A DNA stretch of 64,000 nt from a virus. Below are positions 3,398 through 33,963 of this stretch, one piece after another. Positions within the stretch are counted from its first letter, which is position 1; every line of letters starts with the position of its first letter. Below the pieces are notes generated by a model. The model saw nothing but the letters and a program-made list of their open reading frames with translations. It did not search any database and was not told the origin of the DNA. The translations under genes were made by a program, and so were the position numbers. The DNA lies in the IMG/VR virus record IMGVR_UViG_3300020183_000020, positions 32,001-96,000 of that record. One strand, written 5' to 3'.

Positions 3398-4450
3398 TCA
3401 GCCCTCAAGGTTGGCGAGATCGGCAAGTCTAGCTCTCAAGTCCTCGCCCCAAGTAGAGGGAAGCTCGGATAAGGGAGCTATGAAGTAAACCTTGCCCTTA
3501 GAAGGCGAGAAGAAAGTGTCCGTTCCTGCGGATAGTTTTGTATCCATTGCGAAGTAGAGACTTCCGTCTTTACCCGTCATGCCATATTTGATTGGACCGA
3601 TGTAGTAACGGCTAGAGAATGCCTCTACATGGTCAATAATGTCGGCAAACTCGCCCAACATCTGAGTTTTCCTTGTTCTAGCCCCAACGGAAGTACTAAC
3701 AAAGTCTTTACGGATAGCGGGAGTAGGTGCAGAGCCTCCTCTCTCATATACGACCACAAATTGGGTCTGTCCCTCAAACATGGCGAGATACTTCTGATAG
3801 GAGGCAAGGTTTTTGAACCCTGATCTATAAATGCCGAGTCCGTCATGGGGAGTAAGGCTCTTTTCACGCAGTTCTCTTTTTACCTCCAAGACCTTATCCA
3901 AATCGCCCTTCTTTGTAGCCCTCTCTAAATCCTTAAGAAGTCCTGCGATGCGGGTAGGCAACGCGGCTTCAAAGTTAAAAGTCCTAGAACCAACCTTACC
4001 ATCAAGTAGCGGGGAAATGACGACTGTGCATTTCTCATCCATATCCTCAGGGCAGATCACATCTTTTACAATGAAGTAAACGGGATTAGCTGGATTGAAT
4101 CCAAGTGCTTCGCAGTTCTTCTTATTGGTGGGGTTCACGCACTTAGAAGCATCAACAAGCACAATCTCTCCCACACTTAAAGGACCTCTGACCGCAGAAG
4201 GAATATCTGCGGCAGGTTCCTTAATGGATACTCCGTTACTCACAAGAGCACTCTTCACATTGTTTTCTGTCATGCCGATTGGATTGGATAAAATCGCCCA
4301 ACAAGCAAAAGCACCCGTGTCGGCAGGTGAAGCCGACTTATCTACAGATGCTGTGTGTCCCTCTCCCTTCAGGATGGGGATTAGAAAGGGACGGATATCA
4401 GGGTTCTCGTTCGCGAGACGGATAACGGCTTTTCTTAGGTCGTTCATCAT
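3398..4450 (-). CDS. Putative virion-internal protein with N-terminal LRKAVIRLANENPDIRPFLIPIL tag
   Basis: 350 aa, GGAG RBS, TA-N5-TTTAT upstream; tag followed by HTA..DKSA. Confidence 0.7.
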   Translation of the reverse strand: MMNDLRKAVIRLANENPDIRPFLIPILKGEGHTASVDKSASPADTGAFACWAILSNPIGMTENNVKSALVSNGVSIKEPAADIPSAVRGPLSVGEIVLVDASKCVNPTNKKNCEALGFNPANPVYFIVKDVICPEDMDEKCTVVISPLLDGKVGSRTFNFEAALPTRIAGLLKDLERATKKGDLDKVLEVKRELREKSLTPHDGLGIYRSGFKNLASYQKYLAMFEGQTQFVVVYERGGSAPTPAIRKDFVSTSVGARTRKTQMLGEFADIIDHVEAFSSRYYIGPIKYGMTGKDGSLYFAMDTKLSAGTDTFFSPSKGKVYFIAPLSELPSTWGEDLRARLADLANLEG

Positions 4451-4498
4451 CTACTCCAAAGTTGGGTTCAGACATATTCTGTCCCCATAAAAAAAGTA

Positions 4499-4870
4499 TT
4501 AAACCGAGGTTATCCGTTCTAGCTCTGCCTGTAGGTGATATTCGGTATTGGATAGTTGGTTGAGTAGAAGTGCCACGAGTGCATTGTTTAGGTGTGTGGA
4601 TAGGGGGAAGGCTTTTTGTACTTCCACTAGAGAGAGGGAGGGGGTTGTTGTGATTGATGTATGGGCTTGCATTTGAATTTGGCGTTGCGTGTACCAAAGG
4701 GCTTTCCTCAGGTCTTCTAGTGTGTTCTCGCCAGGTTTCTTACCTGCACGGAGGATGTATTTGACGGCTGAACCCAAAGAGAAGTTCAGCCCATACGCCT
4801 CAATCACATCAATCGCTTTTAATCCATTCCCATCGTAGTGATTAGGATTGTTTATCTTTTCATAACTCAT
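4499..4870 (-). CDS. DUF3310-family protein
   Basis: INNPNHY...AIDVIE...FSLGSAVKYILRAGKK...EDLRKALWY; start taken at MSYEK. Confidence 0.85.
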   Translation of the reverse strand: MSYEKINNPNHYDGNGLKAIDVIEAYGLNFSLGSAVKYILRAGKKPGENTLEDLRKALWYTQRQIQMQAHTSITTTPSLSLVEVQKAFPLSTHLNNALVALLLNQLSNTEYHLQAELERITSV

Positions 4871-4873
4871 TAG

Positions 4874-4885
4874 TAGGCTCTTTAT
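4874..4885 (+). promoter_or_regulatory. Late-type motif TA-N5-TTTAT
   Basis: TAGGCTCTTTAT, about 40 nt upstream of the fibre gene. Confidence 0.55.
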
Positions 4886-4925
4886 CATTTGTAGTGGTGT
4901 GGACATTTCTATTACCGAGGTCAAC

Positions 4926-7070
4926 ATGGCAAATCTATCCTCATTTTATCAGCTTTTCGGTGAACTGCCCACTAGAACTCTAAAGGGACTAGACCCCACA
5001 TCTTCGTCTTCGCTTTTCGCTAATGCCCGAGGACAAGATATCTCTCTCCTTGCCTCTAGCGGGATTGAACAAAGAGGTGGTGTCGTCCTCATCAGCGGAG
5101 GTCGCGGTGGTTCCACTTCAGGTAGTAATGGAGGCGGTGTTTCCCTCTATGGCGGAGACTCGATTGCTGCTTCTTCTCAAGGAGGGGGTATCCAAATTTA
5201 TGGCGGTGATTCAGATGTCCAAACAGGATATGTGACAATAAGTGCTTATTATGCACAGGGAGCACCTGATGTCGCTCCCACTATCACACTCGGCAGTTTT
5301 AGTGGCACCACAGGGGGGGTGGTATCCATTACAAGCGGGAAACCTGCAAGCGGTTCTACTTCGGGCGACATATCCATAACATCTGCAAATGGTGTTGGTT
5401 CTAATAGCGGTAGTGGAGACATCTCATTCAGTACAGGGAACGCCCAAACTAATGCCTCTAGTGGAGAGATTTCTGTCTCAACAGGCACCTCAACAGGAAA
5501 CCAACCCACAGGTCGGATAGTTACCAAAACGGGTAGCTCATCAGGTTCTGCCGACTCAGGCTATGTCGAGTTCTCTACAGGTCTTACCTATGGAACGGGA
5601 AACTCAGGTTTTGTTCTCCTCTCTTCGGGTGATAGCAACCAATCTTCGGGCTATATTTCACTTAACTCAGGTTATGGCAGTACTGAAAGCGGATATATAC
5701 TTATCCAATCAGGCTTTTCGGACACCATAAGCGGAGAAGTATCCATTATTAGTGGAGATGGTGGCTCGAATAGTGGTGATGTGTCTATTTCTACAGGGTC
5801 GGCAGAGAGCACAGGGGATTGGATAGCTACAACAGGTCAAGCTACTAGTGGTTCTTCGGGAAGCATATATCTAAATACAGGCACGGCAACGACCCAATCG
5901 GGATCGCTTGATGTATTTACGGAAGACGCTCCTATTACGGGAGACTTGACTATCCAAACAGGTACTGCTTCCTCAGGTAATGCGGGCGATATTTATCTCA
6001 TAGCTGGCTCAGGTACTACCCATGCAAAAAGCGGTAGTTTGGACCTAACGGCTAAGAGTGTTATTTGGGGAACAAACAGTCCGACTAACTCTGATGTTCT
6101 ACTACAGGTATCCGATGGTGGACTAAATATCTCTTCTTCCGCTACCATTAACATGACTTCTCTCAATGGACAGCTCAAGATTGAATCCTCAGATTCTATC
6201 CTATTTCAGGCTCCATACTACACTTTTGACACTCCCGAATCGACACATGACCCTGTAGAGATTGGCATAGGTGGAAATAACCAACTACTTCTCCCCGATC
6301 TCACCTCTCTCACTACTGAGAACTTATCCAATATCAACCTCACATTCACCAATGTGGACATAGACCTAGAGACAGGATTCTACCTCGGTGTCTCTGCTGA
6401 TCAAACTATCCTAAATACGGATAACGCTACTATCCGTAGTAGAACACCCGACCAAGCCGTTCAACTCACAATAGGTGATGGTGTTTATACAGGGCTCGCT
6501 TTGAACGCCATTTCAAAAGGGTCACTCTCGGGGGTGGCGGAGGGGGATGTCTCGATTACATCTACTACGGGTGAAGTATCTCTTATCGCACCACAAGGTG
6601 TTAACCTTATTTCCACCTTGGGCGAAATAGATATTGCTGGGGCAAATATCAACCTGACCGGTTTCCACCCCACCAATCCCACATACATTAATGTCTCTAG
6701 CACCAATATACCCACCACAGGTCCTACCGCTGTGGATAATAGACTTCTCCAAGTAGGTGCTAGCGGCATCTTGTCCGCTCTCGGATTTAAGTTTCAAATT
6801 TTGGAAGTCGGGGTTTCAGCTACAGTAGCCTTAGGCAATATCACGGACCTCTATTTCAACATAGGTGCCGCGTACACAACACCCAAAGACAGGCTAATCT
6901 ATAGTCTTGAGATAAACGGAGATGTCGCTTTAGATCATCAGTTCTACTTTAGGGGATACACCACAAATCCCGTTGGATCATCCCCTTGTATCCAGCTTCA
7001 TTCAGGTACTAACAACTTTGGCAGCCTCGGCAAAGTTGTTAGGATTTATTATCTCATCTTCAACTCATAA
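4926..7070 (+). CDS. Gly/Ser-rich beta-helical fibre or spike protein
   Basis: Many SG-x-[IV]-x-[IL]-x-[ST]-G repeats with 13-15 aa period; GAGG RBS before ATG 4926. Confidence 0.7.
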   Translation: MANLSSFYQLFGELPTRTLKGLDPTSSSSLFANARGQDISLLASSGIEQRGGVVLISGGRGGSTSGSNGGGVSLYGGDSIAASSQGGGIQIYGGDSDVQTGYVTISAYYAQGAPDVAPTITLGSFSGTTGGVVSITSGKPASGSTSGDISITSANGVGSNSGSGDISFSTGNAQTNASSGEISVSTGTSTGNQPTGRIVTKTGSSSGSADSGYVEFSTGLTYGTGNSGFVLLSSGDSNQSSGYISLNSGYGSTESGYILIQSGFSDTISGEVSIISGDGGSNSGDVSISTGSAESTGDWIATTGQATSGSSGSIYLNTGTATTQSGSLDVFTEDAPITGDLTIQTGTASSGNAGDIYLIAGSGTTHAKSGSLDLTAKSVIWGTNSPTNSDVLLQVSDGGLNISSSATINMTSLNGQLKIESSDSILFQAPYYTFDTPESTHDPVEIGIGGNNQLLLPDLTSLTTENLSNINLTFTNVDIDLETGFYLGVSADQTILNTDNATIRSRTPDQAVQLTIGDGVYTGLALNAISKGSLSGVAEGDVSITSTTGEVSLIAPQGVNLISTLGEIDIAGANINLTGFHPTNPTYINVSSTNIPTTGPTAVDNRLLQVGASGILSALGFKFQILEVGVSATVALGNITDLYFNIGAAYTTPKDRLIYSLEINGDVALDHQFYFRGYTTNPVGSSPCIQLHSGTNNFGSLGKVVRIYYLIFNS

Positions 7071-7123
7071 CTTTTATTCATTTATAATGCTCAATGAATG
7101 GATACAACACAAAGGATAGTGCA

Positions 7124-7435
7124 ATGAGAAATGAGATAATCCGCCTCCACAGAAGAATAGCCCGTCTAGAGCGTATTGCAGGTACAACCAAGTCCGCAGG
7201 GGGAGTGAAAGAACTCCTTATGGATTCGGTGGCAAAGAACAAGAATAAGCTGATTAAGGCGTGGGGGGGCAATCCCAACGATATAGACCTTGAGTTATGG
7301 TTTCAAAGTCTAGACGGTGGTGATGTCTATGGAGCCCTTAGGGATGCTCCCAACAGGGAGGTTGCCAAGATCATCAAGAACGACATCATCAAACCCATCG
7401 AGGATGACTCGATGGATGAGGATGTTCCCTTTTAA
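7124..7435 (+). CDS. Small putative virion-internal protein with IIRLHRRIARLE...TKSA tag
   Basis: AAGGA RBS before ATG 7124; late-like motif at 7074-7085. Confidence 0.65.
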   Translation: MRNEIIRLHRRIARLERIAGTTKSAGGVKELLMDSVAKNKNKLIKAWGGNPNDIDLELWFQSLDGGDVYGALRDAPNREVAKIIKNDIIKPIEDDSMDEDVPF

Positions 7436-8205
7436 GCCCCTGCGATAATCACATCGAACAACTTACCATTCCCCACCTTCCCGACACTCAAGAGTACGCC
7501 ACCTGAGGCGGAGAGGTCGTTACACTCAATCTCTCCGATACAGATTTTAGCCCTTGGGTCGGAGACCTTGAAGGTCAAGCCCCCAATCGAGACGGAGCTA
7601 TCCAATTTCGGGGTTTCGGTAGTAACCTGCGGGGGAGGGCTGATGGACTCCACTCGATAGGGGGTAAGAATAACAGGTTCATCGTTGACGATAGGTTCGA
7701 CAGGTTCATCGTTGACCACAGGGGTAACCTTTGGGGAGATCACCCTACGACTCTTACCATCGATTTTGGTCAAATTAGAAGTTAAATTGCGAAAGTGGTC
7801 GGGAACCCGAGTGCCGAACACGCAGACAAAATGGCGATTAAAATCCGCCGCGTTTAGGAACTTGTGTGCGTTGGCTTCGATGTAGGATAAGTACAACGAA
7901 TCAAAAGATTCTTTATCCTTAGTCTTAAGGGATGCCTTTAACCGCAGTTCTTTCCAAGCCTCAACATAATCCTTTAAAGGGATAGACTTATCCGTGTACT
8001 GATACATGAGGGAAGGGGGGATCGGCAACTCGGTGATCTGAGGTTTCAGATTGGGGTTTGCAGACGATAAATTTCCACGATAATCCACCCGAAAGTCAAT
8101 AAAAGGGACTTGAGTGTTGGGGTTGTCGAGGAAGTGTTGGATAAACTTCGACCTAATACGCATCGGGGGGACTAACCTTATTGAAGAGAGTAAGGGAGGG
8201 TTCAT
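7432..8205 (-). CDS. Hypothetical protein; C-terminal beta domain paralogous to 8235-9491
   Basis: GGAG RBS, 257 aa. Confidence 0.75.
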   Translation of the reverse strand: MNPPLLSSIRLVPPMRIRSKFIQHFLDNPNTQVPFIDFRVDYRGNLSSANPNLKPQITELPIPPSLMYQYTDKSIPLKDYVEAWKELRLKASLKTKDKESFDSLYLSYIEANAHKFLNAADFNRHFVCVFGTRVPDHFRNLTSNLTKIDGKSRRVISPKVTPVVNDEPVEPIVNDEPVILTPYRVESISPPPQVTTETPKLDSSVSIGGLTFKVSDPRAKICIGEIECNDLSASGGVLLSVGKVGNGKLFDVIIAGA

Positions 8206-8234
8206 TTTATCTCCAAGGTGGGAATTGTGGGTGG

Positions 8235-9491: not shown

Positions 9492-9528
9492 GGATGATAA
9501 CTCCTTGTTTAAGTGTGTCCGTCTCACC

Positions 9529-9558
9529 ATTTATATGGAGTGGCGGCGGTTGGGATAC
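9529..9558 (-). promoter_or_regulatory. Early-type promoter GTATCCCA-N15-TATAAAT
   Basis: Same motif and spacing as the other copies. Confidence 0.7.
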
Positions 9559-9610
9559 TCTTTTTAAACCTTAAATAAGTGGGGGGGTTTTACGATAGGA
9601 GGGACGCTCT

Positions 9611-10122: not shown

Positions 10123-12855
10123 CTATTTCTTAGCTAGGGAAGCAACCCTGAGAGCGGAGGCTTTAAGAGAAGCGATTCTAGCGGGGTTCCAATTGAAAGG
10201 AGCCTGTTCAAACTTGCCCTTTTCATCGAACTCAGAATATTGGATAACCTCTAGTTTACAGATGGGTTCTTCATCGGATTCAAAGCGTTTCTCATAACCC
10301 AAGAAGTCCACATCATTAGGGATAAGGTAAACCACCATTTTCTTTTGCTGTGGGTCGAACATGATTTGAGATGTGGAGTATAGACCATTAGGGACTTTCC
10401 TAACAGGGATAAAGGGGTCGTCCATTTTATCCCAGCGGTATCCGTAAAGTGCAGGGGCTGCATCTTTAATATCGGTCACATTGGATAGTATTTCTGTGGC
10501 GAGTTCTCTTCTTCTTAGGGAGGATTGGCGATCATCTCCGCTTTGATAACCTGCATCAGGATGGTTGATGCCGTGATTTGTGCGTACATGGAGTTTGTGT
10601 CTTTGTAGAGTTTTAACAACAGGTTGGTGGATGGAAGTTTGTTCTATGATTTTTGCCCGCGTCCCATCTGATATGATGGTATGTCCATGTACGGGTACAT
10701 GGAACGAGTTACCTGCGATGCACTTTAGGGCTTCTTCAATCGTTTTGCACTTGAGTGCATTTAGCAGGTAGAAGCCATCTTGAGAAATCATGGGTTCTTT
10801 CTTTTGATTACGGCTTGAACCTTCTTCTTCATCTTCGCGTACATTGAGAGCGGAGTTGACAATGGATATTCCATAGCTGTTTACGCCTTCTAGCCAACCT
10901 GTCACATTGTCGATGTAATAAAGAACCTCAACTCCGTCATACAGGTCGTGATAGATTTTGATTTCGGGGTTGTAGTTTCTATCCCTTATTTTCAGTAGGT
11001 AACGCTTGTCGTCTAGATCGAGGCAGGATATGACACAGGCGGATTTATTCATGGACGATTTCCTTTTGGATAGTTTCATTACTCTAGCTCCTGTTGAGTC
11101 GGATAGCCCTAAAGTTCTGCCCATTCTCCACCTCGCAGTTTGAGACAGCTTGCTTGGGTCTAAGACAAACTGCACAAATGTTTCGGCAAAATCTTCTTTC
11201 TCATTTGTCTTCCCGTAATCCGTGGGTATCCCCAAAGCCTGTTTCATTTCTTCGATAGTTCTCAGGTGTAGTTCTCTATCGGCTAGGGCGAACTCTTTTG
11301 TTTTATCCGATTCGAGTTGTAGTCCAACATCTTCCCACAATCCACTAAGCATAAAGATTCTGTTAATGTTTTCTGTAGCTCTTTCTAGAGCATCTTGTTC
11401 ATTCCAATCTTCACGGGAGTGTCCTCTAACTTCGTAGAAGTAGTGGAGAGGGTCTTTAAAGAACTCCATGACCACCTTGCCCTCGGCGGTGAGTCTAAAG
11501 TTAGAGGGTGTCATGAGTGGTTTACGCCCTGACAACTGAGTAAACAGTCCGTGTATTTTCAGAATATCTAAGGGCGAAGCATTGCTCTTGACGATTTTGG
11601 GGTCGCCCTTGGCTTCTTGAAACATAGTGAAGTATCGAGACCTGTCCTCAGGAGTGATTGTGAACTTTTTGAGGTTCTTTTCAAAGAAGTCTTCTTTCTC
11701 TCTGTTGATATATTCCCAACCGCTATCCCAAAACTCTCTTGCCTCTCTTGTGATGTAGTTTAGATGCACCCAATGTCCTATTTCATGGAGCAGTACTTCA
11801 TGGACAAAGTTAGCTAAGACTCGACCTTTTACGCCGAAGCTGTTTGTAAACATCTTTAAGGTTCGAGTAGTAGATATCCATTCACCTGCCGTACTTGAGC
11901 CCTGCTCTTGGCGGAGCAATTGGATAGAAGTAATCGAATCACGCATGATGGGGGTCATGTCGCGTTCTTTGAAGATTGCTTCTATGAAGTCGATCCCATC
12001 AAGGAAACTACGGACTTCATTATCCGAAAGGTCAAAGCTCTCAACATTGAAGCCTTTGTATTTGAATTTCTGATAGTCGATTTTCACGCTGTGTCTCTCT
12101 ATGTCTAGAGAAGCCAGCTTCATTTTGTCAATGGCGGTGTTGAGGCGTGCGATGTTAGGTAAACTTACTGCATCGGGCAGTTCAAGGATTTGTGAAATAA
12201 GTTGGCGATACTTCCCAACGGCTCTATTTAGCCCAAGATACTCTATTCTAGCTTCCGTACCTACGATGTTTTGTAGTACAGAGTCTCTTAGCCGACTAGT
12301 GAATTCCATGTATAGCTCTTGGAGAGCTTGTGCATTCCTAGTTGTCCGCAGGATTTTCCAAACATCGGTTTTAAAGTTTTCGATGATGATGTGAGGGAGT
12401 TCTATGGTTGCAGAAGACTTCTTAGATGGGGTGTGTTTAATCTTCCATGCTTTCCATTTAGCGTGTTGGGGGCTAGACTTCAAAGACGGATCGTGACCCC
12501 AATTTCTGAGACTTATTTCCCACTTGGACATTCCGCTTTCGCCCACAGGATCACCAGGCTTGCCACCGAGCATCCTAGAGTTAAATCCATTTTCTTGGGC
12601 TGCATTATCGAAGTCATCATTTGTCCAATCCTTAAAGGGTTTCTCTTTCCGTCTTTTGATTCGATGAAAAGAGTCATAACCTGATTGGATATCTCCTGAT
12701 TCTTTGGCCTCTTCTCTATTTATGGAAGCCAATAATCTATTGTCGTTTTCAGCCCAATCATCGAGGGCTTTTTGACTCATGTTAATAAGATCGTGCCACT
12801 TGTTGTATACTTCTTTTTTCTCTTCTTCAGACCTAGTTTTTGCGTATTTCATCAT
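10123..12855 (-). CDS. Polyprotein: DUF3140-like + zincin metallopeptidase + Ntn (Cys) hydrolase + C-terminal RIA/RVA tag
   Basis: INMS...WEISLRNWGHDP; HEIGH and PTDYGKTNEKEDFAETF; KSA-CVIS...KIRDRNY, WLEGVN, RTNHG; PARIASLKASALRVASLAKK. Confidence 0.75.
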   Translation of the reverse strand: MMKYAKTRSEEEKKEVYNKWHDLINMSQKALDDWAENDNRLLASINREEAKESGDIQSGYDSFHRIKRRKEKPFKDWTNDDFDNAAQENGFNSRMLGGKPGDPVGESGMSKWEISLRNWGHDPSLKSSPQHAKWKAWKIKHTPSKKSSATIELPHIIIENFKTDVWKILRTTRNAQALQELYMEFTSRLRDSVLQNIVGTEARIEYLGLNRAVGKYRQLISQILELPDAVSLPNIARLNTAIDKMKLASLDIERHSVKIDYQKFKYKGFNVESFDLSDNEVRSFLDGIDFIEAIFKERDMTPIMRDSITSIQLLRQEQGSSTAGEWISTTRTLKMFTNSFGVKGRVLANFVHEVLLHEIGHWVHLNYITREAREFWDSGWEYINREKEDFFEKNLKKFTITPEDRSRYFTMFQEAKGDPKIVKSNASPLDILKIHGLFTQLSGRKPLMTPSNFRLTAEGKVVMEFFKDPLHYFYEVRGHSREDWNEQDALERATENINRIFMLSGLWEDVGLQLESDKTKEFALADRELHLRTIEEMKQALGIPTDYGKTNEKEDFAETFVQFVLDPSKLSQTARWRMGRTLGLSDSTGARVMKLSKRKSSMNKSACVISCLDLDDKRYLLKIRDRNYNPEIKIYHDLYDGVEVLYYIDNVTGWLEGVNSYGISIVNSALNVREDEEEGSSRNQKKEPMISQDGFYLLNALKCKTIEEALKCIAGNSFHVPVHGHTIISDGTRAKIIEQTSIHQPVVKTLQRHKLHVRTNHGINHPDAGYQSGDDRQSSLRRRELATEILSNVTDIKDAAPALYGYRWDKMDDPFIPVRKVPNGLYSTSQIMFDPQQKKMVVYLIPNDVDFLGYEKRFESDEEPICKLEVIQYSEFDEKGKFEQAPFNWNPARIASLKASALRVASLAKK

Positions 12856-12906
12856 CAACCTACCTAGCGTATATTAGATACTAGGTAGGTTGATATAAAT
12901 AGATTA
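12854..12906 (-). promoter_or_regulatory. Late-type motif TAATCTATTTAT followed by a 14-bp hairpin covering the RBS
   Basis: ATCAACCTACCTAG-N13-CTAGGTAGGTTGAT. Confidence 0.65.
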
Positions 12907-18185: not shown

Positions 18186-19286
18186 ATGTTTAAGACTTCT
18201 ATGATCCGCAGAGCCTTTTTGATGCGTCAGGCTGCCCACAAGCATCTCATGAAGAATGCAGGGCCTTTGACGGATGTGAGTCATCTCCGCCATCAGGCTG
18301 TGTTTTTGATGGGTGCTCCCGGTTCAGGTAAGGGATTCGTCAGCAAGAGGCTGTATCTCAAGTATATGCCCGGTGGCGGTGCTGGTGGCTCTTTAGACCC
18401 CCAAATGTTTCAGCGTGAGCTTTCGGAGCAAGAGAGAGGACTCACCAACCTAAACTTTGAGAGCGTCAGAGACCGTATTGAGACTTATGGTTTTAGGTTA
18501 GAGGTGAATGAGGGGGGGAATTCCGCGACTATCCCTTTCCGCATTTATGACAACAACGAAGTCCTTATTCCGAGAGACCAATGGGAGGAGAAGGCTCCTG
18601 ATATTGTCGATATGATTGAGGGACTAGAAGAAGTGGTTTTCGCAGCCCCCAAGCATGAGCTTCCCTCATATTGGAGAGTTGTAGACCCTGATATGTACAA
18701 GGAAGAGCTTGAAGGCTACTTAGAGACCAAGCCTGGTTATGTTCACGAAATGTCTTCTGAGATGTCCAAGGCGTACTTCGAGGCGGCTATTGCCACAGGT
18801 GACCCCGTTATCGTTGACGGCACGGGTGCAAAAGCTGCCAAGTATGTCGAACAAATTAAAGTCGCAAGAGATGCTGGCTACAGCATCACACTTGTTTGGA
18901 TTTATGTGCCTCTTGTCGCCAACATCATCCGTAACTGCACAAGAGCTAGAGTTGTGCATATCAGCCATGTGACTCGCCTCTTTAAGCAGATGGCGATTAC
19001 TTGGAAAGCCTTAAGCCCCTATCTCGATAAATCAAAGGTGATTAATACCTTTGACCCTAGCTCTTCGGGTGGTGATGCTAAGTCCTACCTCTCAAAGAAG
19101 AGCCTTGTGGACGGATATGTCCAAGAGCATATGGGATATCCTGATCTCTACACCTATATGACCCAATCGCCCGATGTCCCTCAGGATCAGAAAGACCTAG
19201 CGATGGGACTGAGATGGCTAAGTGGTGGAGCGATGAGCGATAAAGAAAGACGGATGCAGGAACTCCGCAATAAGTTTAACCGTTAA
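18186..19286 (+). CDS. Zeta-toxin-like P-loop kinase with basic N-terminal leader
   Basis: GAPGSGKG, VDPD..KEEL, VHEMSS, VIVDGTG; leader ends in MKNA. Confidence 0.8.
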   Translation: MFKTSMIRRAFLMRQAAHKHLMKNAGPLTDVSHLRHQAVFLMGAPGSGKGFVSKRLYLKYMPGGGAGGSLDPQMFQRELSEQERGLTNLNFESVRDRIETYGFRLEVNEGGNSATIPFRIYDNNEVLIPRDQWEEKAPDIVDMIEGLEEVVFAAPKHELPSYWRVVDPDMYKEELEGYLETKPGYVHEMSSEMSKAYFEAAIATGDPVIVDGTGAKAAKYVEQIKVARDAGYSITLVWIYVPLVANIIRNCTRARVVHISHVTRLFKQMAITWKALSPYLDKSKVINTFDPSSSGGDAKSYLSKKSLVDGYVQEHMGYPDLYTYMTQSPDVPQDQKDLAMGLRWLSGGAMSDKERRMQELRNKFNR

Positions 19287-23098: not shown

Positions 23099-23172
23099 TG
23101 GGCAATCTGGGGCTTGAACCCAGGACCGACCGTTTATGAGACGGGTGCTCTAACCAACTGAGCTAAATGCCC
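23099..23172 (-). tRNA. tRNA with CAT anticodon, probably Ile2 (lysidine), alternatively Met
   Basis: GGGCATTTAGCTCAGTTGGTTAGAGCA CCCGT CTCATAA ACGGT...GGTTCAAGCC; CCA not encoded. Confidence 0.9.
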
Positions 23173-23178
23173 TTAGAT

Positions 23179-23267
23179 TCAATGTCCCATCTGACTGTGC
23201 CGCTTCTATACGGCTGCCACCAGATTGTACGATTTAAGCTGAGGTTCACGACCGTAGAGAACATTGA
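23179..23267 (-). ncRNA. Unassigned structured RNA (three-way junction) between tRNAs
   Basis: 9-bp closing stem plus two hairpins; G-U pairs form only on the minus strand. Confidence 0.5.
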
Positions 23268-23268
23268 G

Positions 23269-23342
<74 letters not shown>

Positions 23343-23390
23343 TTATATGAACACTATACCACGCCGACGGGGGCGTTATAACATTTCAAA

Positions 23391-23472
23391 TGCCCAAGGT
23401 CGGACTTGAACCGACACTCCCGAAGGAAACGGATTTTGAATCCGCCGCGTCTACCAATTCCACCACTCGGGC
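23391..23472 (-). tRNA. tRNA-Leu(CAA)
   Basis: GCCCGAGTGGTGGAATTGGTAGAC..GCGGA TTCAAAA TCCGT; long variable arm; GGTTCAAGTC. Confidence 0.95.
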
Positions 23473-23959: not shown

Positions 23960-24081
23960 ACTAGTTCTCCTTCTTATGGTGTCGATTAGGTCTAGGTTTT
24001 ACCAAGTGGGCTGAGTTTTCTTATTTCTTTTATACTAGTTGCATATGTCGGTCAAAAAACCGACCCTATGGAGTCACAATC

Positions 24082-24474
24082 ATGATAAGAAGAACCGCTA
24101 GTGAAGTTTTAAGAAGCCTTGAGATGAGAGTCTCCCGCCTTGAGGGTAAGACAGCGACTCGCAGAACCGCTGCCAAGAAAATCCGTTTGGATAGAAATGT
24201 GGAGCAGAGGGTGATGAGAGAGATCGCTGATCGGTTTGACATAGAAATGGATGAAGACTCATATTATTGGCACAACCCTGTTTTTGAGGTTTTAGCTGAA
24301 GAAAAGGGTAGCCGCAATGTGTCCGAAGGTTCAATATTTCAGCTTCTAAAGCTAGCGAATGACGACTACTATGTGGTGCTACAGGTCATCCCTTTCGCAA
24401 ATGACTCGGACATCATAGGTGTTTACGACAGCATCTCTGATGCCCTGCGTGATTTCAAGCTAGCCAACCGCTAA
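24082..24474 (+). CDS. Putative virion-internal protein with RRTASEVLRSLEMRVSRLE-GKTA tag
   Basis: GGAG RBS; TATTTCTTTTAT at 24022-24033. Confidence 0.7.
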   Translation: MIRRTASEVLRSLEMRVSRLEGKTATRRTAAKKIRLDRNVEQRVMREIADRFDIEMDEDSYYWHNPVFEVLAEEKGSRNVSEGSIFQLLKLANDDYYVVLQVIPFANDSDIIGVYDSISDALRDFKLANR

Positions 24475-27023: not shown

Positions 27024-27111
27024 GTTATTCCTCCGTTGTGTGTTCTCTTACATATAGGAATTGTAATGGTTCTATGAATCCTAAAAGGTATCTCGATATT
27101 AGGTGAGAAAT

Positions 27112-29028
27112 ATGAAATACGCATACAGAACACCCAAGTTATTTAGCCTACAGCCTCTTCTTAGGCTGTTTAGATCGAAAGGTATTGGATACTCCGTCGA
27201 CAGGTTCAAGGGTGAAAGGGAAGACCGTTTCTTTTCGGTTATTTCAGTTGCCTTAAACGCTGAGGATTGGATAGTTCGCCCGCAGGCTATAGGATTAAAG
27301 AGCGAAGAAGGCTTAGAGTTTATGGATATTAGATTTACTAAGGTGAACTACAAGAAGTTCCACGAGTACATGATGGAGACCAAGGCTGAGTTAGCTCTCC
27401 CCCGTTTGGAAGATAGCTACATGGAACAGCGAGTAGAACTATCCAAAGAAGTCTTGATTGTTGTAGTGCGTGAGGACAGATCAGGATATAGGGGTATTTC
27501 AAATCTAATGGAGGATTGGGGCATCCGCACGGATCGACTTCTAAAAACCAAAGCTCTTTTACTTAAAAAGGCTGAGGGTGAGTCTATTGAACAAGACTTA
27601 AGGGGAGTACCTGCCACGGATATTTCGGGTAATACTTCAGCTAAGGAAGATAAAGCCATCGACCAAAGGTTCATTCAACCGATGCTTGAAAAGCATCGGC
27701 TCTCTGCTGAGATAATGGAAAAGAAGGCAGGTATTTTCAAAACGCACAAATCGAGTTTTGGTCGTCGGATTATTGCCGCCACCCACTCTTATTCCAAAAC
27801 AACGGGGCGACCCCTGTATGTAGAGTTGGACAACATACTTGGAGATACCTCCATAAACTACGCGGGCTCTTTACTAGAGAGATATGCCTGTCAGCACCTA
27901 TCGGAAACTACGCTGCCCGATTTCCTTTTAAAGGCAGAGCTAGAACTGAAAGACGCTATCTATTTACCATCAGGGCGGAAAAGAAATGAGAGTGTCTATG
28001 ACGAGATGGCTAAGAAGATAAAGAAAGATACCGAGGAAAGTCTAAAGGCTTGGCTCGATCTCAATGGTGTACAACTTGGTCTCTCAATGGATACTTTTAT
28101 CGACAGGGGCTTCCGTTCAACTGCAACGGAATATCTCTCAAGATTGAGAGATAAGATATCCGTAGCAATCAAGCCCAAAAGGAAACTCGTAGATGGCATC
28201 CCTGATATGTACGAAACTAAGACTAAATCTGAGTACATATCAGGACTAATGGAGCTAAATGGATTACTTGGTGGACACACAGACATAGAAACAGAAATAG
28301 CAAGGGCGGAGGGACACCCACATTTAGTTTACGCCAGCCATGTACCCAAATCCATATTGGAACTGAACAAGACGGAAATGGTTAAGAGACAGGAAAAAGA
28401 TGAAACCATACTTCTCGACACACTTACTTCCCTTACACCTCAAACAATAGCCCCTCAAACAATAACAAGGGATGGACATAACCTTATCGTGTGTTCGGAG
28501 TATCCGGGTTTTGGAGTTATTTATGATGAGTTAGGTGTTACGCCTGAGAAGGTTCATTTGGAGGGGATTTTTTATGCTCTGAAAATCATGAGCCACTATA
28601 CGGATAAAAGGGTGATACAGCTCAAATATGAGAAGGGAGTTAGGGCAAACTATCTTGTGGCGGGATTGGGGGGGTTAGGTAGAATTGAAATGGATAGAAA
28701 AGATGACCTAAGAGTTGCTATCCATGAGGCGATGCACGCACTTGAATGGCACTCTCCGTCTATATGTTCCCTTGTGACAGCGTTTTGTGCTAGTCGCTTC
28801 AATCCTTTCGAGGAAAAGAACATAGGGAGAGGCGAAAAAGCCTTCTCAGGTCTTTGGGATATTTACGCAGGTAAAATGTATGATGGCGATACAATGAGTG
28901 AGTTTATTACAATGGGGGTTCAGGAGTTCAGAAGTGCAAAAACAATCGTAGGACTCGCTAAGAAAGACTACCCACACTTCCTCTTTACCCACGCTCTAGT
29001 CACAGGGAAGCTGAAGGAATATCTATGA
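27112..29028 (+). CDS. Multidomain protein with C-terminal zincin metallopeptidase
   Basis: HEAMHALE...YAGKMY...SEFITMG; internal KKA linkers. Confidence 0.7.
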   Translation: MKYAYRTPKLFSLQPLLRLFRSKGIGYSVDRFKGEREDRFFSVISVALNAEDWIVRPQAIGLKSEEGLEFMDIRFTKVNYKKFHEYMMETKAELALPRLEDSYMEQRVELSKEVLIVVVREDRSGYRGISNLMEDWGIRTDRLLKTKALLLKKAEGESIEQDLRGVPATDISGNTSAKEDKAIDQRFIQPMLEKHRLSAEIMEKKAGIFKTHKSSFGRRIIAATHSYSKTTGRPLYVELDNILGDTSINYAGSLLERYACQHLSETTLPDFLLKAELELKDAIYLPSGRKRNESVYDEMAKKIKKDTEESLKAWLDLNGVQLGLSMDTFIDRGFRSTATEYLSRLRDKISVAIKPKRKLVDGIPDMYETKTKSEYISGLMELNGLLGGHTDIETEIARAEGHPHLVYASHVPKSILELNKTEMVKRQEKDETILLDTLTSLTPQTIAPQTITRDGHNLIVCSEYPGFGVIYDELGVTPEKVHLEGIFYALKIMSHYTDKRVIQLKYEKGVRANYLVAGLGGLGRIEMDRKDDLRVAIHEAMHALEWHSPSICSLVTAFCASRFNPFEEKNIGRGEKAFSGLWDIYAGKMYDGDTMSEFITMGVQEFRSAKTIVGLAKKDYPHFLFTHALVTGKLKEYL

Positions 29029-29333: not shown

Positions 29334-29412
29334 GGATAGCTGATTAATAGTTTGTTTATGGGGGTACTCAAACGGATACTAACCCTCCCGACCCTTTTGA
29401 GGTACACAGAGT

Positions 29413-29799: not shown

Positions 29800-29802
29800 G
29801 AA

Positions 29803-30402
29803 ATGGCAGACGGAGAGTGCATAATAGGGGGTGATGTATCTCTCGTCTTTTGGAAAGATGGCGGATGGTATGCTGATGGGGAGTATCTAACGGACGATAT
29901 AGGGAAGTGCAAAATCCTCCCATCGAGTGAAGACAGGAAGATTGTCTTATCGGTGGGAGAACCTCCCCGCATATTTGTCCCCAAGAAGTTACCTGAGCCT
30001 GAGCCTGTGAGGGCAATTGAGAAATCGTCCGTTCAAGAGGTTCAGCCCATAGCGGAAGTACTTCAGGTGGTAGAGGACACTATTTTAGAGAAAGTTTTGG
30101 ATAAACTAGGCGACAATCCATTAGCTGTTGTTGTCGCGATTGGATTTGTGGTCTTTAAGAAGATGATCGAGGGTAAACAGACCAAATCTGAAAGTGAAAT
30201 GGATAAAAGGTGTAGCGGTCGTCATCAGGGTTCAGATGTTCAGACCAAAGAGCTAGAGAAGCAGGTTGAAGATTTGAAACAGAGATTGGAAGAAGTGAGT
30301 TCTAACTACGAGCTAAGTAAATCTAGCTCTGTGTCCCGCAGGGATTACAACAAGCTACTTGATCGGATGGAAGCACTTGAAAATTTATTGGATAATAAAT
30401 AG
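29803..30402 (+). CDS. Membrane-anchored coiled-coil protein
   Basis: One hydrophobic segment (PLAVVVAIGFVVF) followed by a coiled coil. Confidence 0.65.
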   Translation: MADGECIIGGDVSLVFWKDGGWYADGEYLTDDIGKCKILPSSEDRKIVLSVGEPPRIFVPKKLPEPEPVRAIEKSSVQEVQPIAEVLQVVEDTILEKVLDKLGDNPLAVVVAIGFVVFKKMIEGKQTKSESEMDKRCSGRHQGSDVQTKELEKQVEDLKQRLEEVSSNYELSKSSSVSRRDYNKLLDRMEALENLLDNK

Positions 30403-30407
30403 TCAGC

Positions 30408-31187
30408 TTATAGCGTATCTGTACTAAGGCTTAGGACTACAAAATCTTCGCTTTTGACCCCTATTTGACACTCGATGAGCCAATCAATAAACATCTTTCC
30501 ATCAACTAGGGCGATGGGTTTATTATCTTTACGGCTGGCTTCTTCAATTGCCTCTTTGGTGAAGCCCGAGGTGCAGATGATCATCCCGCTTTCATGCTTG
30601 AGGCTTCCTCTTAGCTCCCTAACTTCCTTTGATCCGACTTTGTTTTTCCCTGCGTATCTCTTAACCTGTATAGCAACCTCAGTATTGATTAAGCCTATAT
30701 AAATGGCTCTTATGTCTATACCCTTATCTTTAGTGGGTGGTGTGACTCGAACATCACGACAGCCCTTTCGAGACAAGACACCTGCCACAAAATGTTCAAA
30801 CTGAGTCCCATTATACTTACCCAATACATTATCCAAAAGTTGCTTTCTTACCTTGTCGTTGTGGGCTTTGATCTCAGATAAGAAGTTGTCTTGGTGAGGG
30901 TGAGCGGGGGACGGCTTTGGATTGGTCTTGGGAGTCTTGGTGGTGGGGGGGTGGGTAGCCTGAGCGGTTTTTATCCAATAAAGACCTGCCTTATCTAAGG
31001 TGAAGTCGCCATGCCTCTTCATGTGCTTATACAAAGCGGCTTGGATTGTAGCTTTGGGTCTCTTTCCGCCCAAGGGGGGAGACCCCTTCTTTTCTAGAAT
31101 CTTATCCGTGAGGTCATCGAGAGTCAGACCTTGAGATTGTTCTTGGAGAACCTTGATGGCGAGGGAAACATAGGAGTCTTGTTGCAT
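30408..31187 (-). CDS. mrr: Mrr-family restriction endonuclease with N-terminal winged HTH
   Basis: FEHFVAGVL, DKGID, IQVKRY, VRELRGSL, TSGFTKEA, IALVDG. Confidence 0.9.
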   Translation of the reverse strand: MQQDSYVSLAIKVLQEQSQGLTLDDLTDKILEKKGSPPLGGKRPKATIQAALYKHMKRHGDFTLDKAGLYWIKTAQATHPPTTKTPKTNPKPSPAHPHQDNFLSEIKAHNDKVRKQLLDNVLGKYNGTQFEHFVAGVLSRKGCRDVRVTPPTKDKGIDIRAIYIGLINTEVAIQVKRYAGKNKVGSKEVRELRGSLKHESGMIICTSGFTKEAIEEASRKDNKPIALVDGKMFIDWLIECQIGVKSEDFVVLSLSTDTL

Positions 31188-31237
31188 AATGGAGGTAACT
31201 TCTCTTTTGGATTTTGGGTTCTATCTCTCACTCGCCA

Positions 31238-31267
31238 TACAATAATTGTATAACCCGAATGGGATAC
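31238..31267 (-). promoter_or_regulatory. Early-type promoter GTATCCCA-N15-TATTGTA
   Basis: Same motif, upstream of mrr. Confidence 0.6.
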
Positions 31268-31318
31268 TAAATATAAGTGTTTTACTAGGGAAGTGTTCCC
31301 CCGTTGGGGATCGCTCTT

Positions 31319-32185
31319 TCAGTATCCGAAATCGGTGGGGTTTTGGGCGATGACCTTTTCGATCACTTCGATGTGTTTCTTTAGGTGTATGGTGGTGATG
31401 CCTTTAGCCTCAGCCCACTCTTGGTGGGTTTGATAGGTGCCTTCGACCTTATCACGATATATTCCATATCGGATAAGACCTGTCTCCTGACCGAACTTGG
31501 AGGTGAGGAGGTGTTTGACATGATTTGAGATGGAATCAGCTTCAGCTAGCTTTTCAGCTTCGGAGGTGTAGTCGTAAAAGTAGTCTACTTCGGTGTTTTC
31601 GGGGTTATCCTCGTCCACCTTTGTCACCACTTTAGCGGAGTCTTCGGACTGATAGTGATACCGAGAACCACGCTTACACTCTTGTTGAGTCTTACGCCCG
31701 CGTTGGCGTTGCAGGGCATCTTGTCCCTCGACCATACTTGCCCGCCACACGAACTGCTTAAAATGGTAGAAGATTGAGTTTTGTGTGGGTTCTTTGCCTT
31801 TATCCACCATAGCGGAAAGATTGTTCTTGTCGCAGATGAAGACGATAAAATCTTGAAAATAATCTTCCAAGTCGCCTAGAGCAAAGTTTATAGCTGTGTC
31901 CCTGCCCCCATGACGGAGGCAAAACTCTCTCAGCTTTTCGTAGTTGGCGGACTTTCCGTCATACAGCCACTTCTCTGTGGAGTTGTAAGTCCTCCTTGAG
32001 GGGCGGTTTTTAGGCGGTTGGATCGTGACAACCTGATACGACTCAATCTCGTTGAACATGGTGTCGAAAATCGAGTCTTTATTTTCAAGGGCTTTGATCT
32101 GAGCCTCTAGAGCTTTGATCTGAGCCTCCACCTTCGCCGCTTCCTCCCGCTTCCCAAAAAGGTCTTGCCGCAGTTTCTCTAACAC
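31319..32185 (-). CDS. Divergent sigma-70-like or HTH protein
   Basis: Region-2-like DLEDYFQDFIVFI and C-terminal THQEWAEAKGITTIHLKKHI; GAGGAG RBS, GTG start. Confidence 0.5.
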   Translation of the reverse strand: MLEKLRQDLFGKREEAAKVEAQIKALEAQIKALENKDSIFDTMFNEIESYQVVTIQPPKNRPSRRTYNSTEKWLYDGKSANYEKLREFCLRHGGRDTAINFALGDLEDYFQDFIVFICDKNNLSAMVDKGKEPTQNSIFYHFKQFVWRASMVEGQDALQRQRGRKTQQECKRGSRYHYQSEDSAKVVTKVDEDNPENTEVDYFYDYTSEAEKLAEADSISNHVKHLLTSKFGQETGLIRYGIYRDKVEGTYQTHQEWAEAKGITTIHLKKHIEVIEKVIAQNPTDFGY

Positions 32186-32287
32186 GATGGTCTCCTCATA
32201 GAGAGGGTTAGTTGTGCCTCATATGGTTGGTCACCGAGACACGGGGGGTAGCACCTAGTCTACACAGGGTAGGTGGTGTCAGTCAAC

Positions 32288-32318
32288 ACTAATCATGTTA
32301 GTTGGGGGTGTGGGATAC
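32288..32318 (-). promoter_or_regulatory. Early-type promoter GTATCCCA-N16-GATTAGT
   Basis: Motif copy with 1-nt longer spacer. Confidence 0.55.
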
Positions 32319-32370
32319 TTTTTTTCTGTTTATTGACAACCGGCTAAGAATCTTCTGAAAGGATAAGATA

Positions 32371-33963
32371 ATGGACAAGAAACTACTGACCTTAGGTGTT
32401 CTGATCGAGCGGAGTGGGTTTGCCTCCCACAACAAGGAAGCGGCTGAATTTTTGTCCGCTTTAAAGAAACAGGCAGGAATGGATAAACTCGCCATGTTGC
32501 CGACCAAATGGGATAGTCCAGCTAAGAAACAAGAATATGGGGAAATGCCCCTAGATACCCTTCAGCACTTTTTTGTTCAGATGTGGTGGGGTGCGATGGT
32601 GAAGCTAGGTACGACCACCGTACAGCCTCCCGCTGAACTCAAGATGACCAACATGAAGTTTATAGATCGTTTCTTGGGTGCTCCACTTAAGGCATCTTCC
32701 AATCCTAAGCCGAATACGGAGATTAATCAGCTTTGGGCTTCTCTTAAGGAGGCATGGAACAGACACCGCACCGACTACGAGTCGGCTTGGAACCGCATTT
32801 GGTTTAGGGCATATAACGCTACAAGCTATGTCCGTGGTACTAGGAGTTACCCAACCACAGAGGCACGCAATCAAGCTGAATCTGAGCAGTCCGTTGCGGT
32901 CTTTGATAAGTATTTTAAGGGTAACTCGTTATTTAACTTTGTTTTGAAATTAAATCTCGGCTCACTAGAGTCGGTCTTTGAGCAGACCTCGGCTCTGATT
33001 GTATCTAACATCGCCAATGGGAATGTATCCTCAAAGTCGGTCAAAAGCATCTCCACAGACTTTTCCGCTCCCGAAGATGAAGATGGTGGTGGTGCGGGTG
33101 ATGCTTACAACTTCACCTATGAAGATGCCGTCATTAACTATCCGAGTAAACCGAGAGCAGTCACAGAAAAGCTGTTAGGAGATGATGGTACATGGCAAGC
33201 CTTCATCAATGAAGCCGTGAAGAATGATGCTTCTTTTATGGCGGATTTAAATGGGGTAATTAAGGATGCGTTAGAGATACCTGCTATGTCTGAGGATGTG
33301 TTGTTATCCACAAGGATAACAAGTTTGCCTCAGATGGAAATACTCGCAACCCTTATTGATGATTGCATCTCTCCTTTAGCGACAAGGCGTATTCAAAATA
33401 CGGATAGGAACGCGATATCCAGCGGAGGTTATGCTGTCCTTTACGCATATCTAGCCTTGTCGGGGGTGACTTTTGAAGTGGCCGGAGGGGGTACAACGAC
33501 TGTGAAGCTGTCGGTTAACCCTTTCTTACTTAACTTCAGAGAGTTGCAGAGAGTCGCTCCTGAATTTAGAAAGGCGGCAGACTTTGGGGGATTGGTGGCT
33601 AGTCTTTGGGCTTCCGTAGAGAGGTATATGCCCACAAAGTTACTCGTCATGAATCAAGCTGTGTTCACGACTCAGATGATCAAGTTTGTTTGGGGTGGGA
33701 GTGGTATAGCTCCTTATCAGTCCGAGAAGTTCCCTGAGGGTCCCATGAAGGCAGGTAGAAGATATTTTGCAGCCTGCCTCAAAGAGTTTATCCGTCTTCG
33801 CCTTATCCTTGAAGTTTCAAACCGCCAAGTTTTGGCAGATGCCGAACCGGGTTTAAAGGGTTCTACCTGTGTGGATGCTCTTAGAGCAATCACTATGGCA
33901 CCTAAGTCGGTTATTGATGTTGCTCGTACACTTCTGATTCAGGACTTAGTGGGAATGAAGTAA
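32371..33963 (+). CDS. Hypothetical protein, putative virion-internal
   Basis: 530 aa; N-terminal KEA/KQA/KLA cluster; late-like motif at 32322-32333. Confidence 0.7.
   Translation: MDKKLLTLGVLIERSGFASHNKEAAEFLSALKKQAGMDKLAMLPTKWDSPAKKQEYGEMPLDTLQHFFVQMWWGAMVKLGTTTVQPPAELKMTNMKFIDRFLGAPLKASSNPKPNTEINQLWASLKEAWNRHRTDYESAWNRIWFRAYNATSYVRGTRSYPTTEARNQAESEQSVAVFDKYFKGNSLFNFVLKLNLGSLESVFEQTSALIVSNIANGNVSSKSVKSISTDFSAPEDEDGGGAGDAYNFTYEDAVINYPSKPRAVTEKLLGDDGTWQAFINEAVKNDASFMADLNGVIKDALEIPAMSEDVLLSTRITSLPQMEILATLIDDCISPLATRRIQNTDRNAISSGGYAVLYAYLALSGVTFEVAGGGTTTVKLSVNPFLLNFRELQRVAPEFRKAADFGGLVASLWASVERYMPTKLLVMNQAVFTTQMIKFVWGGSGIAPYQSEKFPEGPMKAGRRYFAACLKEFIRLRLILEVSNRQVLADAEPGLKGSTCVDALRAITMAPKSVIDVARTLLIQDLVGMK

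Follow-up and report, generated by a model that had tools for sequence, protein, structure and literature searches.

The stretch of DNA examined here (the window, 64,000 nucleotides) comprises positions 32001-96000 of the 110,137-bp contig IMGVR_UViG_3300020183_000020; positions are given in window coordinates, and negative ones lie on the contig upstream of the window. Judging from its genes, the phage to which this contig belongs has a portable N-terminal leader on a variable assortment of small, probably late proteins; the leader is a short basic and helical segment that ends in the boundary motif [KR]-x-A-[SGA]. A preliminary description of the window had proposed that at least seven dispersed genes share an upstream promoter-like motif and basic helical tags ending in K/R-x-A, by which effector-like enzymes are loaded into the virion. 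A modular tag of this kind does exist in the phage, and the principle of that description is right, but its definition of the motif was too loose to pick out the members. The contig encodes a family-A DNA polymerase, a ligase, methyltransferases, three tRNAs and a contractile-tail baseplate. Its completeness as estimated by CheckV is 35%, and a complete relative, the 375,691-bp IMG/VR contig G001, has 66 proteins in common with it, with identities of 63% for the DNA polymerase and 50% for the baseplate. From gene content, completeness and the size of this 375-kb relative we conclude that the contig is a fragment of an uncultured jumbo myovirus. The features of the window that matter most for the leader are listed below.

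24022-24033, + strand: TA-N5-TTTAT motif, 48 nt before the start of the gene at 24082, followed by a hairpin and a conserved 5' untranslated region (5'UTR) ending in GGAG
24082-24474, + strand: leader-tagged, putatively late protein of 130 residues, with leader and boundary site MIRRTASEVLRSLEMRVSRLEGKTA at 24082-24156 (leader profile E 4.5e-15)
7094-7435, + strand: small protein with a degenerate leader, MRNEIIRLHRRIARLERIAGTTKSA, at 7124-7198 (leader profile E 0.01)
4331-4450, - strand: leader of a second type, recognized by comparison of N-terminal motifs, on the 350-residue protein 3398-4450: MMNDLRKAVIRLANENPDIRPFLIPILK, then GEGHTAS and VDKSA↓S
4487-4498, - strand: TA-N5-TTTAT motif ahead of 3398-4450, at a distance of 36-37 nt from its start; also present at the G001 orthologue of this gene
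4874-4885, + strand: TA-N5-TTTAT motif ahead of the VgrG-like spike gene 4899-7070
33961-33972, + strand: TA-N5-TTTAT motif at the head of the baseplate operon (from 34037 on), used as the reference for late or structural genes; also present at the G001 orthologue 249403-250443

The leader family is obvious in a listing of all N-termini of the contig, where it appears as M(I)RRTASEVLxSLExR[VI]ARLEG[RK]TA. In its general form the leader, referred to below as the RRTASE leader, comprises 24-26 residues, M(I)RR[TS]ASE[VI][LI]xxLExR[VI]ARLE-x(0,1)-[KR]-x-A-[SGA]. It consists of a basic start (MRR[TS]AS), an amphipathic helix of two to three heptads that resembles the GCN4 zipper (E[VI][LI]xxLExR[VI]ARLE), a short linker and the boundary [KR]-x-A-[SGA]. 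The core of the helix aligns with GCN4 zipper variants (HLENRVARLEK), and the R-[IVL]-A signal previously treated as an element of its own is simply the R[VI]A of ...R[VI]ARLE. A profile of the leader was built at first from five copies and later from 151 cluster representatives. On the 110-kb contig 13 frames matched the profile, and the copies are distributed as follows.

-25569, -23571, -4415, 24082, 70467 and 73929: six full N-terminal copies
-23580 onward (L001:8420-8521, + strand): the copy at -23571, in which the sequence reads ATA in place of ATG
73407, - strand: frameshifted copy, in the gene at 73038-73488 (L003:13038-13488)
-31961, -31363 and 7094: three degenerate copies
398-residue protein: one internal copy
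397-residue HEMGH protein: one C-terminal copy
-23103 to -21949, - strand (L001:8897-10051): partial copy, NRSASEVLRRL, between the HAD and peptidase-C39 domains of a 384-residue protein

Two of these copies are irregular at the level of reading frame. In the gene at 73038-73488 a one-base frameshift follows MIRRTASEVLRSLEMR, and ARLERRAGS... together with a payload of 111 residues continues in another frame; the gene may be a pseudogene, or it may reflect a sequencing error or a programmed shift. The copy with ATA is otherwise identical over ~45 nt to the copies at 24085 and 73407, and its sole in-frame ATG would start inside the helix, at MRIARLEKAAG. The degenerate copy at 7094 is preceded by a variant of the promoter-like motif, CATAACTTTTAT, which lies 16 nt before 7094 and 46 nt before the ATG at 7124. 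The latter is the usual spacing, so the true start of this gene is probably 7124. The 384-residue protein that carries the partial copy joins an RNA-repair-type HAD_SAK_1 domain (5e-17) to a peptidase C39 domain (1e-11).

The leader is widespread among related phages, and what follows it is not conserved. The profile finds 31 matches in G001 and 22 in a second relative, G004, and orthologues of the 24082 protein, at 68-95% identity, keep the leader. In IMG/VR, 149 matching stretches were found at 75 loci, with at least 5 copies on each of several contigs of 143-375 kb. Among 1.84 billion representatives, 902 protein clusters match the leader at E <= 1e-3, nearly all of them starting at residue 1. 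The proteins so marked have a median length of 134 residues and mostly acidic payloads, which beyond the leader are unrelated (mean column identity 5%) and give any Pfam match in 5 of 130 cases. The expectation that the payloads would be recognizable enzymes is thus not borne out, since true leader payloads are mostly small domains of unknown fold. Across more than 100 of these otherwise unrelated proteins, R3, R4, S7, E8, E14, R16, R19 and E21 of the leader are invariant or nearly so.

The leader peptide is under selection as a protein. In 27 copies the proportion of synonymous differences (pS) is 0.665 and that of nonsynonymous differences (pN) 0.206, the latter lowered somewhat by the fact that the copies were picked by their peptide pattern. 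Synonymous sites are close to saturation while the peptide is kept, and the copies switch between codon families for Ser (TCG/AGT) and Arg (CGT/AGA), which argues for selection on the peptide. About 35 nt of the 5'UTR are also conserved alongside the leader, both between paralogues and between phages; the stretch from promoter motif to ATG reads GGTGATCTCTTTAACCCTTAACC..ATGGAGAA in G001 and, after the hairpin, TTAATCCYTTGGAG at 24034-24081 of the window. This conservation suggests a shared translational or RNA element. An AlphaFold2 model of the 24082 protein gives residues 1-30 a predicted local distance difference test score (pLDDT) below 50, with a lone unpacked helix at 6-20 and a linker, and models residues 31-130 as a confident globular alpha/beta domain; in this model the leader looks like a detachable element. 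A Foldseek search of the model against the PDB returned nothing better than E 0.1 and only weak monellin- or cystatin-like rows. A Tat or Sec signal was considered for the leader and rejected, as it has no hydrophobic core. Cleavage within the leader by a phiKZ-type S/A/G-x-E or T4-type L/I-x-E rule was likewise rejected, because the P3 residue at RLE is Arg and that of the xLE site is not conserved.

The end of the leader behaves as a motif separate from the helix. In the 151 representatives, the positions after RLE prefer G/R/K at +1, R/Q/K at +2, A/T/S at +3 and A/S/G at +4. Two registers are present, RLE-G-[RK]-T-A-S and RLE-[KR]-Q-A-S, and in each of them an Ala with a small residue after it has Lys or Arg at the second position before it. 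[KR]-x-A occurs in register in 122 of the 151 representatives and within 14 residues of the end of the helix in 139. Where inserts of variable length follow the helix, they still precede [KR]TAS, as in RLEETNGKTAS, RLESATRKTAS and RLEDSSSSRTAS, which argues that the boundary is a motif of its own and not the end of the helix. The loose tripeptide K/R-x-A, on the other hand, is near background, with 278 occurrences genome-wide against ~230 expected from composition. In an unbiased count, 15 of 123 proteins carry two or more [KR]xA in the N-terminus, against 5.45 +/- 2.1 expected; eight of the 15 belong to the RRTASE...RLE family and the remaining seven match the null. The excess of such N-termini is thus accounted for by the leader family. 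Across the proteome of G001, [KR].AS occurs 145 times and its reversed form SA.[KR] 59 times.

The same boundary motif follows a second leader, on the gene 3398-4450. Its consensus, LIRLAxENPxxRPxLxPxLK (also seen as LIRLAxENPxLRPxLLPLLK and LIRLAHENPxLRPxLLPLLK), is unrelated to the RRTASE leader. It is used once in the window and many times in related phages of 370-500 kb, where it heads diverse proteins at 23 IMG/VR loci, with 3-5 copies per 372-497 kb genome. Most copies run directly into K-x-A-G/S (LLPLLKEAG, LLPLLKQAG, LLPLLKTAG, KVAS), and the G001 orthologue of 3398-4450 keeps the helix, followed by RIAT. In the relative LR745208 this leader starts a 134-residue gene situated between the scaffold and capsid genes. 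That two unrelated leaders have one boundary motif in common is what most strongly supports a processing site of the kind proposed in the preliminary description.

Genes with the RRTASE leader are associated with the TA-N5-TTTAT motif. The motif occurs 24 times in the window against 10.5 +/- 3.1 in shuffles, and ~20 of 53 copies on the contig are correctly oriented towards a start codon that follows 31-70 nt further on, including copies that precede the spike gene, a gene of the tail and the baseplate operon. Among the baseplate genes of the window are a sheath-initiator-like gene at 34037-35077, Baseplate_J at 35074-38376 and the VgrG-like spike. In G001 an exact motif lies 36-67 nt upstream of 24 of 27 N-terminal leader genes and of 51 of 424 other genes, and the latter include the head-protease operon and baseplate, spike and tail genes. 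The proposal that the motif also heads structural operons holds for both the head-protease operon of G001 and the baseplate operon. From this company of head, baseplate, spike and tail genes we infer that TA-N5-TTTAT marks late genes.

Since the contig is 35% complete and is without a head module, this module had to be read in relatives, namely G001, G002, G004 (a 312-kb genome with terminal repeats) and LR745208; a search of ~60 contig proteins with PHROGs and Pfam found no terminase, portal, capsid protein or protease. The head operon of G001 lies behind TA-N5-TTTAT and encodes a 344-residue protein, a 1171-residue protein, a head maturation protease (phrog_18299, 5e-14; L082:12134-13582, - strand), an acidic scaffold-like protein of 513 residues and the major capsid protein (phrog_2522, 2e-51), with a portal gene nearby. 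Capsid protein and protease of the relatives were found with PHROGs only, the capsid protein also matching the HK97 family weakly. The Pfam families PF03420, PF07068, PF03237 and PF05065 gave no match in the relatives, and control genomes for PF03420 gave no match either. A sequence search of the PDB with the protease and with a conserved late protein of 463 residues returned nothing usable.

We compared the count of [KR].A[SGA] in each protein with per-protein shuffles across the genome. In G001 the leader proteins are, as expected, the highest-ranked outliers, and the motif is also in excess in the protease (5 against 0.84 expected), the scaffold (6 against 1.9) and the first gene of the operon, 57108-58142 (3 against 0.66). 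Summed over the four relatives, the proteases hold 18 sites against 4.0 expected and the scaffolds 33 against 9.0. In the same genomes five control motifs, made by permutation or reversal, were at expectation, and hence the enrichment is directional. In alignments the sites are conserved columns within variable linkers, one just after the protease domain and several in the C-terminal part of the scaffold. The capsid protein has one site, GR(A/N)KLAA↓SMTQPL at residues 26-30, which is invariant in the four genomes. The motif is thus in excess in both scaffold and protease, and a copy of it stands close to the N-terminal end of the capsid protein. A K-x-A propeptide of the major capsid protein had been suggested as a check, and the site is indeed there, though its count is not significant by itself (5 against 3.1 over four sequences).

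Several observations were made beside these proteins. An ARVARL segment of the scaffold resembles the leader (profile E 6); the resemblance is weak and was not used as evidence. The G001 scaffold-like protein that adjoins the protease (L082:10555-12096, - strand) has an EF-hand calcium-binding motif (Pfam 1e-7). Also in G001, a protein of 870 residues (L080:8726-11338, - strand) has nine [KR]-x-A-S sites, where ~0.9 are expected, separating repeated modules of ~40 residues, and looks like a polyprotein diced by a protease. On the contig the top protein in the motif test is a scaffold-like paralogue of 524 residues (7 sites against 1.2 expected), encoded at -15980 to -14406 (L001:16020-17594, + strand). 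It is acidic, with ADDLEADD repeats that also come after the leader in the protein at 70467, and its N-terminus, KYASLTQPLMTRRDY, copies the N-arm of the capsid protein, LAASMTQPLRLRRDY.

Among known systems, the diverse internal proteins of phage T4 have only their capsid targeting sequence (CTS) in common, which serves to load them into the scaffolding core (PMC3012670). Proteases of giant phages remove N-terminal propeptides of 20-254 residues as well as their own C-terminal propeptide, and in SPN3US the protease motif occurs in several copies inside propeptides (PMC10052503). The way in which [KR]-x-A-[SGA] is spread over protease, scaffold and capsid protein matches what is known of prohead-protease substrates. 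The leader ends in a motif that also crowds the head protease and the scaffold, and by analogy with T4 we lean towards the view that it is a capsid-loading tag of the CTS type, removed by the prohead protease. The helix would dock the payload onto the scaffolding core during prohead assembly, the prohead protease would then cut after [KR]-x-A, and the payload would be left free in the head and possibly be ejected with the DNA. The second leader, with the same end motif, would work likewise. Extending this to the large uncultured aquatic clade of jumbo- and mega-phages to which these genomes belong, we tentatively propose a capsid-loading code made of two interchangeable leader helices and the rule [KR]-x-A↓[S/G/A], which would send ~30 proteins of each genome, and overall more than 900 unrelated families, into the head, from where they would be delivered to the host; we hold this wider proposal with less confidence than the reading of the leader itself.

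A number of facts weigh against a capsid-loading role. The evidence from protease, scaffold and capsid protein all comes from relatives, the head module not being on the contig. The four relatives are homologous, so that their motif counts are not independent, and the single site of the capsid protein is, as noted, not significant alone. In LR745208 the protease and the scaffold are rich in the motif while the RRTASE leader is absent, which means that motif and leader can be uncoupled. A simple model of an N-terminal propeptide does not explain why the helix is internal or C-terminal in three larger proteins; ~30 leader proteins per genome are many for head cargo; and the promoter-like motif also drives tail genes, which makes a tail or other late destination possible. 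A tblastn search of the leader against 50,697 phage records gave no match, and no cultured member was found.

Alternatively, the leader might serve as a generic coiled-coil handle for docking or oligomerization, which would join variable small proteins to one another or to a late structure or partner other than the capsid (tail, baseplate or a cytoplasmic hub), with [KR]-x-A-[SG] as part of a recognition surface and not a cleavage site. Its core is GCN4-like, with an a/d heptad pattern and Glu/Arg at e and g, the internal copy in the 398-residue protein and the C-terminal copy on the 397-residue HEMGH protein are what such a handle would allow, and tail and baseplate genes stand under the same class of promoter. 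A plain zipper would drift, however, whereas the surface residues are near-invariant in over 100 unrelated proteins, which points to one conserved partner; moreover, the boundary motif keeps its identity at a variable distance from the helix and is concentrated in protease and scaffold, not in tail proteins. We consider a docking handle of this kind rather unlikely. It is less probable still that the conserved unit acts mainly as nucleic acid, as a mobile cassette in which late promoter, 5'UTR, ribosome-binding site and first codons spread together by recombination and give new genes late expression, with the peptide as a passenger. The conserved ~35 nt of 5'UTR, the stretch of ~45 nt identical in three copies, the frameshifted copy and the copy with no ATG all fit such a cassette, but the excess of pS over pN, the switches between Ser and Arg codon families, the conservation of the peptide in 902 clusters and the internal and C-terminal copies that have neither promoter nor UTR do not. 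To the extent that a cassette exists, it adds to a capsid-loading function more than it replaces it.

The boundary might also be read as a phosphorylation site. R-R-x-S is the classic consensus of basophilic kinases, and [KR]-x-A-S (RRAS, RRTAS) could be the site of a Ser/Thr kinase of this type, with leader proteins, scaffold and protease as its substrates. GRRASQ and GRRASY contain RRAS, which equals the consensus, and the contig encodes a zeta-like kinase as well as a protein with a match to a kinase-annotated PHROG. Nevertheless, Ser or Thr follows the Ala in only ~60 of the 139 representatives that have [KR]-x-A within 14 residues of the helix, with Gly, Ala, Lys, Asn and Arg common in its place; the second leader mostly has K-x-A-G and the capsid protein KLAA; and the invariant residue is the Ala, a better fit to the P1 pocket of a protease. 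As Gly or Ala so often comes after the boundary Ala, we regard a kinase site as very improbable.

A removable capsid-loading tag would belong to a kind of system that is already known from the T4 CTS and the propeptides of giant phages. As in the T4 CTS (internal proteins IPI, IPII, IPIII and Alt; protease gp21), a short N-terminal leader is the sole part shared by diverse and otherwise unrelated small proteins, the genes, late ones in T4 and probably so here, lie dispersed or are hypervariable, and a motif, here putatively that of the head protease, stands at the end of the leader and is multiplied in core or scaffold. The T4 sequence is nevertheless shorter, ~10 residues (MKTYQEFIAE) against a zipper-like helix of 24-26, with no sequence similarity, and the protease motif of T4, L/I-x-E, ends in Glu and not in the putative [KR]-x-A↓[SGA]. 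The gp21-type (S77, PF03420) and gp23-type (PF07068) protease and capsid families of T4 were not detected in the four relatives, and the number of tagged genes (~30 per genome) and the use of two interchangeable leader types also set the present system apart. The phiKZ-like phages (SPN3US with its protease gp245, phiKZ, 201phi2-1) are, likewise, giant myoviruses with many head proteins, but the SPN3US motif A-x-E↓ ends in Glu where the present one ends in Ala with a basic P3, and their propeptides belong to paralogous families instead of forming one portable leader on unrelated payloads. Herpesvirus assemblin cleaves its maturation and release sites between Ala and Ser, with a hydrophobic P3. 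The putative P1 Ala and P1' Ser, Gly or Ala at the boundaries of scaffold, protease and cargo are similar, while the Lys or Arg at P3 is not, and the phage protease has no sequence match in the PDB. Cargo-loading peptides of encapsulins, whose shell has the HK97 fold, and encapsulation peptides of bacterial microcompartments also send unrelated proteins inside a shell by means of a short amphipathic helix, which may stand at either terminus or internally; they differ in being uncleaved and usually C-terminal, in binding the shell directly and in being unrelated to a maturation protease.

The sequences of the two leaders, their interchangeability, the Ala-ending motif with basic P3 and a family of this size were not found in Pfam, phage records or the literature searched, in which the leader strings gave nothing relevant. 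If the capsid-loading interpretation is correct, the packaged proteins of an uncultured clade of giant phages can be listed from sequence, ~30 per genome and more than 900 families, nearly all of unknown fold. The equivalent proteins of T4 include inhibitors of host restriction systems, which makes the class of leader proteins a likely place to look for such inhibitors. The interpretation would also imply a new prohead-protease specificity, basic-x-Ala↓small, that is unlike the Glu-ending rule and recalls the Ala↓Ser of herpesviruses, and so would bear on the evolution of a shared protease lineage. In addition, both leaders would become available as short, portable tags with which foreign proteins could be loaded into large capsids.

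It remains to place the seven genes named in the preliminary description. All peptides quoted there are present at the positions given for them. The profile of 151 leaders matches only two of the seven genes, 24082 and 7094, and hence a tag shared by all seven is not confirmed. The upstream motif is exact in four (3398-4450, 10123-12858, 18186 and 24082), differs by one base in two (7094/7124 and 27112) and is absent at 32371. The genes with neither leader, and the promoter motif of one of them, are as follows.

10123-12858, - strand: fusion protein of 911 residues, with a DUF3140-like domain, an HExxH region and an AAT/C45 Ntn hydrolase, assigned by Pfam on three segments; no leader match
12895-12906, - strand: TA-N5-TTTAT motif ahead of 10123-12858, at a distance of 36-39 nt from its start
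18186-19286, + strand: zeta-toxin/AAA_33-like kinase (Pfam 1.6e-9) behind two promoter motifs (18100 and 18132); no leader match
27103-29028, + strand: protein of 641 residues with an HEAMH motif; no leader, no family match, variant promoter motif only
32371-33963, + strand: protein of 530 residues directly upstream of the baseplate operon; no leader, promoter motif or family match; K-x-A within expectation

These four are probably ordinary genes, some of them late, in which the supposed tags are chance occurrences of the K/R-x-A tripeptide. This is a claim about the four genes alone and holds alongside the capsid-loading interpretation of the leaders. Five of the seven proteins have K/R-x-A counts within shuffle expectation (P 0.12-0.39), the four have no match to the leader profile, and without the leader family the number of N-termini that hold two or more [KR]xA equals the null; the apparent N-terminal excess in the seven is circular, because the genes were chosen for it. 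The N-terminal RQAA and KNAG of 18186 are compatible with chance ([KR].A[SGA] 3 against 0.76 expected, p 0.04 uncorrected). Against chance, 10123 and 18186 carry the exact late promoter motif, and 10123 offers two weak hints: [KR]-Y-A-K at residues 3-6 is conserved in its orthologue, and its C-terminal tail PARIAS LKASALRVAS LAKK (10126-10185) has two R[IV]AS motifs.

The domains named for these proteins fared unequally. The zeta-like kinase is confirmed by PF06414 (1.6e-9, 37.9 bits against a cut-off of 22.3). The Ntn hydrolase domain of 10123 begins with its nucleophile Cys and matches AAT/peptidase C45 (PF03417) at 6.2e-10 and 39.6 bits in the G001 orthologue, although the match in the window itself, at 0.0023, is below the cut-off. 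DUF3140 (PF11338) also falls short, at 5.3e-4 and 20.8 bits against a cut-off of 25, though the match covers positions 2-91 of the 92 in the profile. The two zincins amount to HExxH motifs, with Zincin_1 at 0.024 over 19 residues for 10123 and no family for 27103. Cleavage at KSA↓C had been thought to activate the hydrolase. The open reading frame 10123-12858 corresponds, however, to two separate genes in G001, where the hydrolase starts with MKKQS↓C in place of MNKSA↓C; K-x-A before the nucleophile is thus not conserved, and self-processing is the simpler reading. The hydrolase gene of G001 additionally has a GGACT/ChaC-like domain that is absent from 10123-12858.

Two further features of the contig were recorded. 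A DNA-level search of phage records with the contig matched only a tRNA. The tRNA genes form a cluster at 23099-23472 of the window (- strand; Met-CAT, Arg-TCT and Leu-CAA), and the tRNA-Arg gene shares 95-98% identity with its counterparts in T4-like phages of enterobacteria. Outside the window, L001:5017-6015 (+ strand) encodes an actin-fold protein of 332 residues (Pfam Volactin, 4e-72), which at 88% identity to its counterpart in the 375-kb relative is the best-conserved protein common to both phages.

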